Positions 799-37,044 of a stretch of 64,000 nucleotides of DNA are shown here, one piece after another; the first letter of the stretch is position 1; each line of letters begins with the position of its first letter. This DNA comes from an uncultured virus (IMG/VR IMGVR_UViG_2061766007_000671). Lineage: Duplodnaviria > Heunggongvirae > Uroviricota > Caudoviricetes. The notes below the pieces were generated by a model. That model was not told the DNA's origin, did no database searches, and saw only the letters and a program-made list of their open reading frames with translations. The stretch lies in the IMG/VR virus record IMGVR_UViG_2061766007_000671. The stretch is one strand, 5' to 3'. Made by a program: the position numbers and the translations under genes.

Positions 799-1199
799 TC
801 GTCTCCCTCCTCCCAACGCTCCGGGGGCAGAAGCTCCTGCCCAAAAAGGTTGTACCACTGCCCGCATCCGGGGCACTCACATGCACCCATGTACTCGTTG
901 AACATGGGAAACTCTGCGCCGCATTCGCACAGACCGTAGGCGGGGTCTCTGTACGAATGTGTCTGCTTGATGACCTTGTTGAAGCGGACGTACTTCTCGG
1001 GGTGCGCCATAGCGGACTCCATGTTCCTTCGCCGTGCTTCGTCCACGGCATTGTGGTCAATGCTCGGGTGCTCCGGGGCGGGGAGAATGTTCCCGGCCTC
1101 GTCGCATGGGAAGCACAGCCCGTTGCCGCGCCCGTCATCAAAGACCAGTTCGTAGTAGGTTTCTTCCTTCCACTCGGACGGTGTGTAGCTCTTCAGCAT
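792..1199 (-). CDS. hypothetical protein with C-terminal Zn-ribbon-like CxC...CxxC
   Basis: GGAGG RBS; LCECG...CECPGCGQWYN motif. Confidence 0.7.
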   Translation of the reverse strand: MLKSYTPSEWKEETYYELVFDDGRGNGLCFPCDEAGNILPAPEHPSIDHNAVDEARRRNMESAMAHPEKYVRFNKVIKQTHSYRDPAYGLCECGAEFPMFNEYMGACECPGCGQWYNLFGQELLPPERWEEGDDW

Positions 1200-9053: not shown

Positions 9054-9734
9054 TCAGTGCTCTTTGCAATAGACGGTCTCGCCTGCTACGCAACCTCTGT
9101 GCAGATTTTTACACACGTCGCAGTTGCCCGGGCAGTAAAACCCGGCGGGCGGAGTCTCGTCTTTGAACACGACCCGGAACTCGGGCATGCCGTGCGGGTT
9201 TTCCATTGGCATGCCGCGCCACTCGGAAAACATCACGGTGAAGTTTTCCGGGAGCGCGCCGTGCTCGTCAATCCATGTGTTCACGATGCCGTACATTTTT
9301 GTGTACGTCCAGAACACAAAATCGGGATGCGCCCGCGCGATTTTTACCATGCGGTCGAAATAGTCGCCGTCGATGATGTCGCCCGCGACGTGCCAGCGGA
9401 AAAACTTGTTTTTCCGCCGCCGGGATATCGCGTCATCAATCCGGGCAAAAAACCCGTCGCGATCTTTTCGCAGGACGGTAAAGTTTCGCATGCGCGCGTC
9501 GATTACCGTGCCCGGATACTGGGCGCATGCTTTGATGTCGTAGCAAATTTTCATGCATTCTTTGCAATTGCCGCACGACATCACGGGCATATGCGAGACG
9601 TTCATCACGCGCCCGATTTTACGATTGCCTCCGCTGATGCAAAGCGGGATGTCTCGCGCGTCGAGCCTTTCAAGCTCCGCGCCGCGCTCGCGCGCTTTTT
9701 TCATCACGCGCCGCAGTGTTTCGATTGAGTACAT
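9054..9734 (-). CDS. GP88-family (radical-SAM-like, Cys-rich) protein
   Basis: GNRKIG, SCGNCKECMKICY, FRWHVAGDI, FWTYTK and CPGNCDVC motifs; start MYSIETL after GGAGG. Confidence 0.7.
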   Translation of the reverse strand: MYSIETLRRVMKKARERGAELERLDARDIPLCISGGNRKIGRVMNVSHMPVMSCGNCKECMKICYDIKACAQYPGTVIDARMRNFTVLRKDRDGFFARIDDAISRRRKNKFFRWHVAGDIIDGDYFDRMVKIARAHPDFVFWTYTKMYGIVNTWIDEHGALPENFTVMFSEWRGMPMENPHGMPEFRVVFKDETPPAGFYCPGNCDVCKNLHRGCVAGETVYCKEH

Positions 9735-9789
9735 TCGATTGCCTCCAATCAATCTGTTTTCCTCGCCCGGAGCAGGCCNNNNNNNNNNC

Positions 9790-11001
9790 TCCGCGCTCCG
9801 CGCGTCCGACCTCGATGGCCTCCGCGCCATCCGCCCGGAGGCCGTCGCCGACCTCGTCGCCGCCGCCGTCTCCCGCGCCATCGACCGCCGCGAGGCGGAG
9901 ACCGGGCGCGACGGTCGCGCCCTCCGCGCCCGGTACGCCTCGACCCGGGTCACGCTGTCCGAGACCATGAACGCCGACGCCATCGGCGAGGCCTGCGCCG
10001 TCCTGCTCGAGATGATGACCCCGGGCGGATGGATTGACGGCGAGGCCGTCGCGATGACCGACCGGGAGACGGGCGACCCCGTCGCCGTCGCCCGCCGAGA
10101 CCTCCCGCTTGCCTACGTCGCCGCCATCGCCGCCGGGCGCGGCCTCGACCGTGTGATGTACGCCGACGGCGGACACGCCGTCAAGATGACCGCCCGGGAG
10201 GCTCGGGAGAGCTACGACCGCGCCGCCCGGGAGGCCGTCAAGACCCGCGCCCGCCTCGAGGCCGCCGGGGAGGAAGTCCCGGAGCAGGTCGCCCGCCTCG
10301 CCGAGATGGCGGAGGCCGCCGAGGTCGCCGACCTCCTCGCCGCCGAGGCCGCCGCCCGCCCGGATGACCGGGAGGCCGCCCGCCTCGCTCGCGTCGCCCG
10401 CTCCGAGTATCTCGCCTCCTCCGCCGCCGTCGCCGCCCGGATGACTCCGAGCGAGACCCGCCGCACGGTTGACCCGGTCGCGCCCTCCCCGGAGGCCGCC
10501 GCCATCTCGGCGGAGACCGTCGCCGCCATCCTCTCGGAGGTCTCGCCCGCCTACGTCTCCGCCGCCGTCGCCATCGCCCGAGAGGTATACCGGGGAGCGA
10601 CGACCGCCGACGGCCTCGCGAATGTCGCCGAGGCCGCCCGCCTCGCGGGAATCCCGGAGCGGAAAGCTCGCCGGGCATGGGAGGCCGTCAAGGCCGCCGC
10701 CGCCATCGCCCGAGAGGAAGACCGCGCCGAGGCCGTCGAGATGGCGAGGAAGACCCGCGCCGACGGTCGCCGCGCCGCCGTCCGCCTCCACCGGGAGAGC
10801 GTCGCCGCCGCCGCCGAGGCCGCCCGCCTCGCCGGGATGGAGCTTGACCGGGAGGCCTCCCCGGAGGCCGTCGCGATGTGGGGAGAGGTCGCCCGGAGGA
10901 CTCGCCCGGAGCGCCTCGCCGCCGTCGCCCGGATGACTCCCGCCGACCTCGCCGCCCTCCGCGACCTCGCCCGCGCCGTCTTCCTCGCCGCCGCCGAGTA
11001 A
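9790..11001 (+). CDS. GC-rich Ala/Arg/Glu-rich protein, candidate divergent sigma-70/ECF-like factor (5' end lost in gap)
   Basis: 403 open codons with strong GCC/GAG/CGC/GTC/CTC bias; region-2-like DAIGEACAVLLEM, linker PSPEAAAISAETVAAILSEVSP, HTH-like VAEAARLAGIPERKARRAW. Confidence 0.55.
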   Translation, partial: SALRASDLDGLRAIRPEAVADLVAAAVSRAIDRREAETGRDGRALRARYASTRVTLSETMNADAIGEACAVLLEMMTPGGWIDGEAVAMTDRETGDPVAVARRDLPLAYVAAIAAGRGLDRVMYADGGHAVKMTAREARESYDRAAREAVKTRARLEAAGEEVPEQVARLAEMAEAAEVADLLAAEAAARPDDREAARLARVARSEYLASSAAVAARMTPSETRRTVDPVAPSPEAAAISAETVAAILSEVSPAYVSAAVAIAREVYRGATTADGLANVAEAARLAGIPERKARRAWEAVKAAAAIAREEDRAEAVEMARKTRADGRRAAVRLHRESVAAAAEAARLAGMELDREASPEAVAMWGEVARRTRPERLAAVARMTPADLAALRDLARAVFLAAAE

Positions 11002-11021
11002 ATCCCGCCGCTGTCCTATAA

Positions 11022-11045
11022 AAGGCCCTCCCGCCGGAGGGCCTT
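11022..11045 (+). terminator. GC-rich hairpin after the GC-rich ORF
   Basis: AAGGCCCTCC-CGCC-GGAGGGCCTT; weak U tract. Confidence 0.5.
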
Positions 11046-11475
11046 CCCCATGCCCTATATATGACTATATACTCATATGAGAATACCTATATATGAGTAT
11101 CTATTTATATGTATATATAATAATATGTCATTATATTCATATGACCATGTCCGCATATAATGGTATGAGAGCATGCTATTGATTGAGCGCGTCCTTTTTA
11201 GCACTCGCTCCCGGAGATTGCCAGTCTATACGATACCATGCTATTAATTGCATGCTATCAATAGCTTGCTTTCGGTATGCCCGCCGGGAGGCCCGCCGCC
11301 CGAGCCGTCATTACATGTATAAAGACGGCTCGAGGCGGTCACCTCCCCCCAGTTTCGGAATCGAATGTACATATGATCATGTGTTCTCCCCGGCGGCACT
11401 TCCCAAATCACAACTATTTCAAAAAATGATCTATAGGGTTGGTGGTGGCGGAATAGGGAAAAATTGGTGAAGTGC

Positions 11476-11505
11476 TTGACAAGTATAGGTGGTGCATGGT
11501 ATTAT
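11476..11505 (+). promoter_or_regulatory. sigma-A promoter for the ncRNA locus
   Basis: TTGACA-18-TATTAT with extended TG. Confidence 0.65.
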
Positions 11506-11668
11506 GCCCCGCCAATAAGGGATGTGCTGGGACGCATCATTGGTGGAATCTCCTTTCTGAACAGGGTATAGCCCCTGGTGGTTTATCGGCATGGGCTGCC
11601 GGGGGCGGTACTCATAACAGGTAGGGGTAAAAAAAATTTGCGCGGTCGCTTCGCGACATAGAGTATAA

Positions 11669-11740
11669 GCCGGAGTAGCATAGGGGGAAGTGCGCCGCTC
11701 TTTTAATGCGGATACGCGGGTTCGATTCCCGTCTCTGGTT
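11669..11740 (+). tRNA. tRNA-Lys(TTT), atypical, no encoded CCA
   Basis: Cloverleaf GCCGGAG/CTCTGGT, GCAT/GTGC, CCGCT-CTTTTAA-TGCGG, GCGGG-TTCGATT-CCCGT. Confidence 0.75.
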
Positions 11741-11771
11741 GATCCTGCGCAGGGATTATGTGGGCGAGTCG

Positions 11772-12354
11772 GCTGCCTTATTAACGTCGGCCTGCGGAGA
11801 TAGCGACCACTCCGCCGCAGCTCAGAAAGTTCAGGGTGAAATAAAAGGAGACGCCCTGGCAGATGGCAAGTTCGCAATAGTCTGCCGAAGCAAACTGCGG
11901 CGGGGNNNNNNNNNNNNNNNNNNNNNNNNNNNNNNNNNNNNNNNNNNNGCCCTTTATAGTTTATTTTCCGTGGACACGGCGCGCTATATGCGCTATGAAG
12001 TCGGATTGGGTAGGAAGTCCTGAACGATCCCGGTCAAGCCCCGATTGTCTAATTGCGGGTATGAGGATTATCCAAAAGCGGGGCATCTTCCTCCGTGGGA
12101 ACTACGTCAGTGCCAACAATATGGGGCAGAGCCACCCGGCATTACGGGAGGACACATCAGGCGACGGGGACATTTCCTCGAAGAGCCAAAGGGGTGCGAG
12201 ACCCCGCTGCCCCTATAGAAACGAAAGAGCATAGTAGGGGCTTCGGCCATGTGTTCTTGCATAGGGCGGGCGTCGGGGCTTGCCCTTAGTTCTCGCAATC
12301 GCCAATCTGCTGTGTGCGCTACCGACAGGCGGCACGAGCGGTGCGGCGACCGCT
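11772..12354 (+). ncRNA. large ornate structured RNA (ROOL/GOLLD-like candidate)
   Basis: Long-range 5'/3' closing helices and many internal helices with G-U pairs favouring the + strand; follows a tRNA; no credible ORF; followed by a terminator; family not verified. Confidence 0.7.
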
Positions 12355-12392
12355 TCTTCTGATTCCTTTCCTTTCTTCATTTGGTTGCCTCC

Positions 12393-12449
12393 ATCGGGGA
12401 ACGCTCATCGCTTCGGCGGTGGGCGTTCTTCGATTTACTCTTTACTTTT
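12393..12449 (+). terminator. intrinsic terminator
   Basis: 19-bp stem with C-TTCG-G loop then T-rich tail. Confidence 0.7.
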
Positions 12450-12873
12450 ACGCGCGTATGTGATATAAAATAAGAGCAGGGCAAGCGCGGGCGGCGCAAG
12501 CTCTGTTGGTTTGGTCTGCGGGTTCGTGGTGGTTCCCGCAGGTCTCAATTCGGTGCAGGAGTTTTATTTTTTTCTCCTGCGGCGGGGCGCTCGTCACTAC
12601 GGTGGCGGGCGTCTTTCGCATTCACCGTAGCTCACCGTCACCTACCGTGCGCCATCGCGTCGGCTATGGGTCGGCTACGCATCGGCATATTCTCTCCAGC
12701 AGTTACACTTTTCCTATAATTACTGGAGAAAATACGGCACTCCCCCCTGGGTTTCAAAATCTAAAGTGACAGTTTGGATCGGCATTTTCGGATGCCGATT
12801 TTTAATTTTCAAATAATTTTTCGGCTTCGCCGAATAAAGATAGCGCCGGTTCCCCTCATCCCCTTGACATGGG

Positions 12874-12882
12874 TGTTATAAT
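12874..12882 (+). promoter_or_regulatory. extended -10 promoter (TGnTATAAT)
   Basis: 30 nt upstream of ATG 12912. Confidence 0.5.
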
Positions 12883-12911
12883 GCTCCGTTTCATAGGGGG
12901 TGTAAGAATCG

Positions 12912-13211
12912 ATGGCGATCCGCAAGATTGATCTCATGCACAGGCAGTTTGGATTCAGCCCAGGTCACAAGTGCCAGTACTGCGATAACCTGATTGTGCA
13001 GCAGGCGAACCGCCGATACTACAAGTGCGAGGTGTACGGCGTGACAGACAGCGAAGCGAGCGACTGGCGTTTGTCCTACGATGCCTGCGGTATGTACAAC
13101 AGGGTATACAACGGCAACCCGGTCATCCGCATGGTACGTCCGTGGCCTGTGCCTGAATCACCGCTTCCCGGACAGGAATCATTATTTAGAGAGGAGATAA
13201 CCAATGAATGA
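12912..13211 (+). CDS. Cys-containing hypothetical protein
   Basis: CQYC...KCEVYG...DW...ACG motif. Confidence 0.7.
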   Translation: MAIRKIDLMHRQFGFSPGHKCQYCDNLIVQQANRRYYKCEVYGVTDSEASDWRLSYDACGMYNRVYNGNPVIRMVRPWPVPESPLPGQESLFREEITNE

Positions 13212-13527
13212 GGTAGTACCCGATTGGCTGCACCGCGAGGACACCACAAGGGCGTCAGGCACGGCGCTCCCAAACACAATCATCGGCGTAGATAACGCAG
13301 AGTTGAGTGCGCTGCGCCGCACTGTCGATCTCCTGCAAGAAGAGAATCGAACACTCAAAGCCGAAAACGCCACGCTGCGAGAGAAGAGCATGACCAATTT
13401 TGATCGCCTGCAAGCGGCCAACACCCCAGAGGATGCCGCAAACTTAATCAACTACAATCTGTTCACGAGAGTCGTGAACATAAACTATGCGTCCGTCCTC
13501 AAATGGCTCAAATCGAGGGACTCATAA
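13204..13527 (+). CDS. coiled-coil hypothetical protein
   Basis: GAGGAG RBS; overlap coupling. Confidence 0.65.
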   Translation: MNEVVPDWLHREDTTRASGTALPNTIIGVDNAELSALRRTVDLLQEENRTLKAENATLREKSMTNFDRLQAANTPEDAANLINYNLFTRVVNINYASVLKWLKSRDS

Positions 13528-14838: not shown

Positions 14839-16095
14839 TCACTTTTTCGGCACTTCTGAAATTTTCCCCATACCGTTCCCCATGCGATTTTCGTTGTTCA
14901 AAATGCCGACAGCCCGAATTGCGTCCGTTTTTCCGGTGTCCACATAGATGTTCGCAGTAGTGGTAATGTCTGCGTGACCCATCAAATACTTTGTCACTTC
15001 AATAGGAACTTCGGCCCGCTGCATATCTGTTCCAAAGGTATGGCGCAGGCAGTAGGTGACAATATCGGGAGACAGCTTATGCCCATTGCGCGGCTTCTTC
15101 GGATCATCAGGATCTGGGTATAACGGCGTACCGTCATACTTCAAATCGGACGGATCGTAGATATGTCCTCGCTTGTCGTGCTCCGCGCCCATCTCCAAAT
15201 CCCAGGTCCGGGAGAACGACGCCCAATAGGATTTGAACGCCTGCCGCGTGAGCATACCCCCATCTTTCTTTGCAAAGAGAAATGCTGACTTGTCTTTCAC
15301 TGAAACGTAATTCAGCAAGTCAGTCACTATAGCGTGGTCTTCCCTGTCGTTGATTACAGTATAGCGAATGCCGGACGCAGTTTTCGGCGTACTAATCTCC
15401 CTCGATCCTGTTTCCACTGCCTGCGTGATGTGGACGAGTTTCTGCTCAAGGTCAAGGTCTGCAACGCATACGGCTGCAAGTTCATTGGGTCTTATACCGG
15501 TGGCCATGAGAAATCGGAAAAGAAGACCGTGAGGATTTCTCTTTGCTGCCTTGAAGAATCCATCCTTTTCTTCTTCGGAAAGAGAACGCCTAGAGCCTTT
15601 CGCCGCCGCTGGAAGCGACAGACCCGCTGATGGATCATAAGTAATGATACGGTCTATACACGCCTGCCCGAACATCTTTTTGATTGTTATGTTCAACTTC
15701 GTCACCTGAGAAAAGGACATATCCTTATTTCCATTCAAAATCGCCTGAAGGTGAGTCGGAAGAACTTCCCTCATACGCAGCGTTCCGACCGCAGGAACAA
15801 TGTAATTACGGACGAGCTGCTCGTAGGATTTATAGGTAGCTTCATTCATCGTGCCGCGCAGCTTCGGCTCACCCGGCTTGCGTACCCTTGGTTTGTTGTA
15901 GGTTTCAAGCCATGTGTTCGCCCAGTTGCGTACCGTCATGTCTGCGCCGATGCCGATGTCGCCGCGCTTGGCGGCATCTACCTTCTCTACGAGTTTTCGT
16001 CGAGCCTCTGCCCTGGTCTTGCCCCAGCCCTCGTATTGCTTCCCGTTATATACTTCCGTCTCGCGGACGTATTGGTATTTCTTTTCCTTTTTCAT
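14839..16095 (-). CDS. int: tyrosine integrase
   Basis: TGIRPNE, PKT, YCLRHTF, LMGH, TANIY catalytic motifs. Confidence 0.95.
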   Translation of the reverse strand: MKKEKKYQYVRETEVYNGKQYEGWGKTRAEARRKLVEKVDAAKRGDIGIGADMTVRNWANTWLETYNKPRVRKPGEPKLRGTMNEATYKSYEQLVRNYIVPAVGTLRMREVLPTHLQAILNGNKDMSFSQVTKLNITIKKMFGQACIDRIITYDPSAGLSLPAAAKGSRRSLSEEEKDGFFKAAKRNPHGLLFRFLMATGIRPNELAAVCVADLDLEQKLVHITQAVETGSREISTPKTASGIRYTVINDREDHAIVTDLLNYVSVKDKSAFLFAKKDGGMLTRQAFKSYWASFSRTWDLEMGAEHDKRGHIYDPSDLKYDGTPLYPDPDDPKKPRNGHKLSPDIVTYCLRHTFGTDMQRAEVPIEVTKYLMGHADITTTANIYVDTGKTDAIRAVGILNNENRMGNGMGKISEVPKK

Positions 16096-35057: not shown

Positions 35058-35132
35058 GCTGTCGTAGCACAATGGCAGTGCAGCCGCCTTGTAAGCGGCA
35101 GGTTGGGGGTTCGACTCCCTCTGACAGCTCCA
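35058..35132 (+). tRNA. tRNA-Thr(TGT)
   Basis: Full cloverleaf, loop CTTGTAA, CCA end. Confidence 0.9.
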
Positions 35133-36970: not shown

Positions 36971-37044
36971 ACCGATCTGGTGTAATGGCAGCACACGGGA
37001 CTTTGACTCTTGCGGTGGTGGTTCGAGTCCAGCGGTCGGTGCCA
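36971..37044 (+). tRNA. tRNA-Gln(TTG)
   Basis: Cloverleaf ACCGATC/GGTCGGT, loop CTTTGAC, CCA; G-G mismatch in T stem. Confidence 0.85.

Follow-up and report, generated by a model that had tools for sequence, protein, structure and literature searches.

The 64,000-nucleotide (nt) stretch analysed here, called the window in the following, comes from an uncultured virus of the Caudoviricetes (IMG/VR record IMGVR_UViG_2061766007_000671). The element under study occupies 11772-12354 of its plus strand and had been read as one ornate non-coding RNA of about 565 nt, closed upon itself by long-range helices and perhaps belonging to the ROOL or GOLLD families of giant RNAs. A tRNA-Lys gene with anticodon UUU (11668-11741, plus strand; called by ARAGORN, 58.4 bits with the Rfam tRNA model) lies 31 nt upstream of its start, so the adjoining tRNA and the phage setting are as that original prediction described them. 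To the right in the window stand a tyrosine integrase gene (14839-16095, minus strand) and genes for YqaJ, RecT and DUF1351, from which the phage is taken to be temperate, and the runs that contain the window sequence are labelled as bovine gut or gut metagenomes. Within 11000-13300 the plus strand has a sole promoter-like site, a strong sigma-70-type one at 11476-11505 with TTGACA, an 18-nt spacer and a TG-extended TATTAT (11 of 12 consensus matches). The promoter attributed to the element therefore exists, but it precedes tRNA-Lys, and the element has none of its own. Between promoter and tRNA a 148-nt leader on the same strand (11520-11667) forms a long hairpin and, right before the tRNA, a short GC hairpin (-57.1 kcal/mol, z score -3.08; 1 of 200 shuffles folded as well). 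At the other end, again on the plus strand, a CU-rich trailer ending in CAU-N-CCUCC (12356-12392) runs into an intrinsic terminator (12393-12445), whose hairpin at 12393-12434 has 19 pairs, a UUCG loop and a T-rich tail. A second terminator-like hairpin, with a weak tail, stands at 12336-12355, and the downstream terminator that had been announced is thus in place.

What lies between the tRNA and the terminator? The stretch is indeed non-coding: none of seven short open reading frames (ORFs) tested in the window has a Pfam match, no ORF of at least 100 amino acids (aa) lies wholly inside the element, and the indels of relatives are not multiples of three. It can be divided into a run of N and, read on the plus strand, a linker and four modules. 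The linker (11742-11807, z = +0.44) holds the 5' strands of the four helices that were thought to close the element, and its own fold is unsupported. Module D (11808-11905) has 98 nt and folds as a three-way junction, in which two hairpins branch from an 11-bp closing stem (-39.4 kcal/mol, z = -3.79; none of 200 shuffles did as well). It is closed by the helix 11812-20/11895-903, which had been described as an internal domain enclosing two hairpins and which has a pair probability of 0.83-1.00. This module was found only in near-identical variants; in the variant from X3, one of four public runs whose contigs were compared with the window, two one-sided changes (11863 A>G and 11864 T>C) leave the second hairpin paired by our reading. 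Module D abuts the N run, 43 N at 11906-11948, which lies inside the element as had been noted. Where 84 letters separate 11904 from 11989 in the window, a near-identical contig of run X3 has 188, so the N run may hide more than 43 bases. Module A (11999-12122) consists of four tandem local hairpins, ends in an ACAATAT leader motif and is thermodynamically unremarkable (z = +0.08). It is followed by module B (12123-12213) and by module E (12214-12355), an insert specific to the window between B and the trailer, which has a local fold (z = -0.49) and provides the 3' partners of the closing helices; the last part of E is the weak terminator-like hairpin at 12336-12355.

The view that the stretch encodes structured RNA is right for modules B and D on the plus strand, but it does not extend to a single large fold. 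Module B is a 91-nt cloverleaf of four arms with the shape of a tRNA. It folds at -44.5 kcal/mol with z = -4.70, a value of energy reached by 0 of 200 shuffles, and its minimum free energy (MFE) structure has a frequency of 0.41, while the minus strand has z = -1.13. A 7-bp closing stem is followed in order by a 2-nt link, arm 1, an 8-nt link, the long arm 2, a 3-nt link and the 5-bp arm 3. The loop of arm 2, the middle arm, has 4 nt (CAUU or CAUA), or 6 nt in the related locus L012. RNAalifold on four distinct B sequences gives the MFE cloverleaf too, and in the stated structure 97.6% of 84 cells are paired, compared with 54-70% in slid controls. Changes on both sides of a pair were seen from G-C to U-A in the closing stem and from G-C to C-G in arm 1, and two further pairs went from G-C to G.U. 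The unpaired linkers are invariant in all four sequences. Since the loops carry indels of 1-2 nt, B is non-coding. The arm-1 change 12138 G>C is present in the X5 and X9 variants as well, and X5 shows compensating changes at 12143-45.

Is B then a tRNA? The resemblance is in the closing stem of 7 bp, which is acceptor-like and stacked on a T-arm-like hairpin, in the 2-nt link and the tRNA order of the three arms, and in the 5' end, which lies in a tRNA slot. The slot is recognised by the heptamer ACAATAT followed by G, which precedes B in the window and in locus L014; the same motif precedes tRNA-Ser(UGA) at 1101, tRNA-Ser(GCU) at 1426 and tRNA-Thr at 1614 of locus L015, so the first G of B follows the heptamer just as these three tRNAs do. 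Unlike a tRNA, B is without an anticodon loop (5-bp stem, 7-nt loop) and has linkers of 8 and 3 nt and no encoded CCA. Because it is called neither by ARAGORN nor by the Rfam tRNA model at E ≤ 10, and has no 7-nt anticodon loop, B is not a tRNA. HDV-like (hepatitis delta virus-like), hammerhead and tmRNA-like (transfer-messenger RNA-like) folds were also considered for it and found no support by eye or in Rfam. B is a new small family of tRNA-shaped RNA, seen in the window, in four metagenome contigs and in three run variants. A covariance model of B, run over 105,121 bases (the window and seven loci), recovered only its four training sequences and no paralog. Two loci, L017 and L018, had matched search patterns only; they reach at most 5 bits with the model and were discarded as chance matches.

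To find relatives, the integrase, terminator and leader patterns and a conserved-core pattern were used, and five distinct related loci were obtained: L008 (a piece of record G002), L012, L013 (on the same contig as L010, L011 and L019), L014 and L015. Where L012 and L013 were compared they do not differ. Among the integrase-based relatives, L001 is identical but ends at window position 12408, L002 is too short on that side, and only L003/G002 reaches the operon. Two further patterns in genome contigs and several in viral contigs gave no new true locus, and the nearest virus record, G001, gave no match. The terminator is kept in all five loci, and the promoter and leader in L008, L012 and L015, the loci that reach them, with TTGACA in the equivalent position when read by eye. 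Window 11511-11740 shows 76% identity with L015 431-664. The terminator is 89-92% identical in L008 and L012, and in L014 and L015 its stem is preserved through two double changes (read by eye from the alignment); the trailer is kept in L008, L012, L014 and L015. Module B is present in L012/L013, L014 and L015. The L015 segment is 91.6% identical to window 12120-12214, and across loci whose neighbouring sequence is unalignable B remains 88-94% identical. Module A is kept in L014 (236-360) and L015 (977-1101) with 93.6% identity, and RNAalifold on its three sequences gives 38 pairs with one double-sided change and several one-sided changes compatible with wobble pairing.

The interior of the operon, however, is different in every relative. 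From leader to terminator L015 has tRNA-Lys, tRNA-Met, A, tRNA-Ser(UGA), tRNA-Ser(GCU), tRNA-Thr, a cloverleaf-like module and B. Upstream of its terminator L014 has tRNA-Ile, A, three tRNAs (two called by ARAGORN, the third by the Rfam tRNA model only) and B. L012 has two tRNAs, an ORF with HNH_3 and AP2 domains, the last 30 nt of A, and B, and L008 has three tRNAs and other modules but no B. None of the five loci has anything that corresponds to two parts of the window, 11742-11998 and 12214-12353, and these are exactly the flanks that bear the closing helices: a homolog of the linker is absent from L008, L012, L014 and L015, and module E from L012-L015. In a contig of run X9 the segment 11741-11998 is replaced by 1000 other letters, with tRNA-Lys and A plus B retained. 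Diverged copies of 12253-12341 stand alone in other contigs (X5 records 12-14 and X20 record 1).

Some of the other cassettes deserve description. The L012 ORF (1220-1933, 237 aa), between a tRNA gene and B, is a free-standing homing endonuclease of the HNH_3 plus AP2 type inside a tRNA array. A second non-canonical cloverleaf-like module, with an encoded CCA, is found at about 930-1012 of L008 (minus strand) and about 1793-1885 of L015, preceded by ACAATATG in L015 and by ATAATGTG in L008. It was called by neither ARAGORN nor Rfam in these two loci, and the L008 copy folds as a cloverleaf with z = -1.92. Also in L008, a tRNA-like stretch at 839-922 (minus strand) encodes its CCA and has a long extra arm; it reaches 23 bits on the tRNA-Sec model and was not called by ARAGORN, and might be a tRNA-Ser that is unusual or has decayed. 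Behind their first tRNA, L015 (665-838) and L012 (921-1094) share a spacer of about 170 nt, with compensatory changes in two hairpins (read by eye), and structured spacers therefore seem general in these tRNA arrays. Just past the N run of the window, TTTTCCGTGGAC at 11964-11975 matches TTCTCCGTGGAC, which in L012, L014 and L015 comes immediately after the 3' end of a tRNA and before module A or the HNH ORF. This match hints that the gap contains, or lies close to, the boundary of a tRNA or cassette. The counts of ACAATATG and TTCTCCGTGGAC across the window are uninformative, so the meaning of these motifs rests on their positions in relatives.

What, then, is the element? The relatives give an operon frame with interchangeable cassettes and a conserved plus-strand cloverleaf in a tRNA slot. 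Our preferred explanation, to which we would give a probability of roughly 60%, is that the stretch is the tail, the distal two thirds, of a cassette-type phage tRNA operon which includes tRNA-shaped or otherwise structured small RNAs, comparable to RNAC and RNAD of phage T4. The single promoter at 11476-11505 would transcribe the leader, tRNA-Lys(UUU), D, the N stretch, A, B, E, the trailer and the terminator. In related phages promoter, leader, B, trailer and terminator would stay as a fixed frame, and the interior cassettes, namely tRNA genes, the HNH homing-endonuclease gene and structured spacers, would be swapped, probably through recombination between short motifs shared at the junctions, for example ACAATAT followed by G. 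The tRNA and B may then be cut out of the precursor by the tRNA-processing enzymes of the host, with RNase P acting 5' and RNase Z or exonucleases acting 3', and small stable RNAs would result, B among them and perhaps D, in the manner of the T4 tRNA cluster. Recognition of B by RNase P is a guess, since its T-arm-like loop is non-canonical. More speculatively still, and with low confidence, B might bind a protein that recognises tRNA shape and might, for instance, act as a decoy for a host defence that targets tRNA; such a role would fit a phage that carries its own tRNA-Lys(UUU).

The T4 precedent is as follows. RNAC and RNAD, the species 1 and 2 RNAs, are small non-tRNA molecules that are encoded inside the phage tRNA cluster and transcribed with it, and their roles are given as unknown (PMC3014915). 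To judge from sequence, B would be like them a non-tRNA RNA encoded inside a phage tRNA transcription unit. The differences are that ours is a temperate rumen phage and that B is a four-arm cloverleaf. The T4 cluster also contains a homing-endonuclease gene, as L012 does. Searching 11742-11905, 11950-12440 and 12210-12395 by blastn (word 11) against 50,697 GenBank phage records, among which the inclusion of T4 was unchecked, gave no match.

Several points weigh against the cassette operon. Two cells of the B alignment are mismatched, an A.C in the closing stem of L015 and an A.A in arm 2 of L012. The alignment has only four distinct sequences and its covariation is equalled by 31 of 500 column shuffles, so the statistics are thin. 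B is called by neither ARAGORN nor the Rfam tRNA model, its T-arm-like loop is non-canonical, and transcription, processing sites and stability are all things that we infer. Modules A and E fold no better than shuffles, and the N run conceals part of the element. Finally, in the near-identical X3 and X5 variants the two flanks specific to the window occur side by side in one element, the indels of X3 are confined to the loop that separates closing helices 1 and 2, which is compatible with a long-range model, and enforcing these two helices costs only 1.9 kcal/mol.

Might the non-tRNA segments have no function at all? They could be decaying tRNA relics and recombination scars that are transcribed and then degraded, which we regard as unlikely, though not so unlikely as to be passed over. 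The poor folds of A and E and the changing operon interior agree with it, the L008 stretch with its CCA and its 23 bits on the tRNA-Sec model suggests that decayed tRNAs occur here, and the outline of the B cloverleaf could itself be an inheritance from a tRNA. However, decay accounts badly for a module that stays 88-94% identical amid neighbours that cannot be aligned, and that folds as extremely well as z = -4.70. The junction strands of B are invariant in four of four sequences and its stems change in compensated ways, so B appears to be under selection as an RNA.

A further possibility is the single RNA itself, in which D, the gap, A, B and E form one ornate molecule of at least 650 nt clamped by the helices of 11772-11806 with 12293-12333. 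We consider this improbable. The seven listed helices are all present where they had been placed, four of them as perfect Watson-Crick duplexes, and one G.U pair each is needed in 11772-78/12327-33, 11794-98/12306-10 and 12035-45/12272-82. The closing helices have a joint duplex energy of -32.2 kcal/mol; among 9081 other 41-nt windows taken from the phage, 0.46% do as well. With hundreds of candidate partners within 600 nt this is not rare enough, and the energy is notable yet not clearly beyond chance. The first two helices lie within the mentioned 1.9 kcal/mol of the MFE, and the shared flanks of X3 and X5, with X3 indels that spare the helices, also speak for a clamp. In the ensemble, however, all four closing helices have a pair probability of 0.00 and enforcing them together costs 11.1 kcal/mol, so the long-range closure of the element is not upheld. 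The two other listed helices exist as well but fare little better: 12077-83/12202-08 has a probability of 0.08-0.09 and competes with the cloverleaf that covariation supports, and the 11-bp helix 12035-45/12272-82 only 0.11-0.18. The fold of 11949-12360 as a whole has just z = -1.53 on the plus strand, 7 of 100 shuffles being as good, and z = +1.02 on the minus strand.

The relatives argue in the same direction. One RNA of about 565 nt is hard to reconcile with loci that interrupt the conserved parts by three tRNAs or an HNH gene, and with flanks that neither any of the five related loci nor the X9 contig contains, A and B being retained. The X5 indels touch the 5' strand of helix 2, with no listed change in its partner. 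Among the E-like copies that stand alone, the X20 contig has, in a 30-nt loose end of depth 2.4, C12319-G12329 changed to A-U and U12320.G12328 changed to U-A. These changes support a local hairpin whose conserved 7-nt loop contains 12322-26 and thereby speak against closing helices 1 and 2, weakly, since they come from a single contig at that depth.

Could the element be ROOL or GOLLD under another guise? All 4227 families of Rfam 15 were searched by cmscan, at the gathering score over the whole window and at E ≤ 10 with permissive filters over 11400-12700. The first search returned the three window tRNAs only and the second nothing relevant, so that no family matched within the element. The ROOL model RF03087 (574 positions), which is in the library searched, had no match at its gathering score of 99.1 bits or at E ≤ 10; the 43-N run could lower a ROOL score, but it would not abolish a match. 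The same model found nothing in record G002, in a run whose positive controls also gave no signal. For GOLLD there was likewise no Rfam match at the gathering score or at E ≤ 10. The setting is nevertheless of the ROOL type, near a tRNA, in a phage with an integrase and in bovine gut runs. ROOL is described from cow rumen, near tRNAs and in prophages, with about 581 nt (PMC5737381), and the element shares with that description the cow-rumen origin, the phage context, the place beside tRNAs with possible co-transcription and a similar nominal length. This agreement of context is what the single RNA has in its favour on this side. Against it, the relatives split the region by tRNA genes, and ROOL has six junctions and three pseudoknots, while the element has only two supported multistem junctions, D and B. 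GOLLD, a large phage-associated RNA often near tRNAs (PMC5737381), is similar in those respects, but no single large fold is supported here. If there is one RNA, cassettes would have accreted into a new class that lives as ROOL and GOLLD do, in a rumen phage beside a tRNA, and for this we see a small chance; it is equally a long shot that a clamp of 11772-11790 with 12322-12333 turned cassettes of a tRNA array into such a class around a tRNA-shaped core.

It is very improbable that the element contains a self-cleaving ribozyme, for example of the HDV-like theta type, or a tRNA-associated intron such as group I, with or without a homing-endonuclease gene. The idea is suggested by theta ribozymes, small structured RNAs of gut Caudoviricetes that are placed no more than about 5 nt from the end of a tRNA, much as the present modules stand directly beside tRNA genes (PMC10879173). 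The long invariant unpaired strands of B and the HNH ORF directly upstream of B in L012 might be read in the same way. In a search made without the descriptor of the theta authors, however, no ribozyme or intron family of Rfam 15 matched the window at E ≤ 10 or the relatives at E ≤ 0.5-1. Behind tRNA-Lys, the next 70 nt fold into nothing more than simple hairpins (z = +0.44). The theta or HDV-like fold is given there as a nested double pseudoknot with a catalytic C (PMC10879173), while the supported fold of B is a nested cloverleaf; and the HNH ORF is free-standing between cassettes, not in the loop of a conserved RNA. Hardly credible, lastly, is a small minus-strand protein of 55 aa translated from a strong GGAGG-N7-ATG at 12380: at the DNA level the window, L008, L012, L014 and L015 all have the Shine-Dalgarno-like box and the ATG, but the ORFs behind the ATG have 55, 16, 28, 74 and 7 aa and share nothing beyond the first residues, no Pfam or PHROG match was obtained, and the G.U pairs of B work only on the plus strand.

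Why does such a locus matter? Phage tRNA clusters are now read mainly as devices for codon supply or counter-defence, and the non-tRNA RNAs within them have had no known role since RNAC and RNAD of T4 were described. The cassette operon offers a small, well-defined example, an anticodon-less 91-nt cloverleaf with compensatory changes in a tRNA slot of a shuffled rumen-phage operon. If tRNA-processing enzymes release B and it binds a protein that recognises tRNAs, the phage would be using a natural mimic of tRNA. If the single clamped RNA were true, giant phage RNAs would be linked to tRNA operons by descent. There is also a caution, that a long, ORF-free and GC-rich stretch beside a phage tRNA need not be a giant RNA of the ROOL or GOLLD type.

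Some minor observations concern the edges of the operon and its surroundings. The nonamer CUCCUUUCU at 11551-11559, at the base of the long hairpin of the leader, is identical in the leaders of L012 and L015, and L008 has a close variant, UUCCUUUCU; we take CUCCUUUCU to resemble the 3' end of 16S rRNA. The CAU-N-CCUCC of the trailer (12378-12392), just before the terminator hairpin, is kept in L008, L012, L014 and L015 too and reads GGAGG-N-ATG on the minus strand. Two other tRNA genes, Thr(UGU) at 35058-35132 and Gln(UUG) at 36971-37044, are distant from the operon. Upstream of it, at 9553-11001, is a 482-aa ORF rich in Ala, Arg and Glu and without Pfam or PHROG match, in a block of 76-78% GC in a phage of about 50-55% GC; L008 has a similar GC-rich ORF just upstream of its operon. 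Downstream of the terminator a conserved stretch at 12683-12734 matches L008 and L014 in both orientations and is therefore palindromic. It could be an operator or an attachment-site element between the operon and the integrase module.

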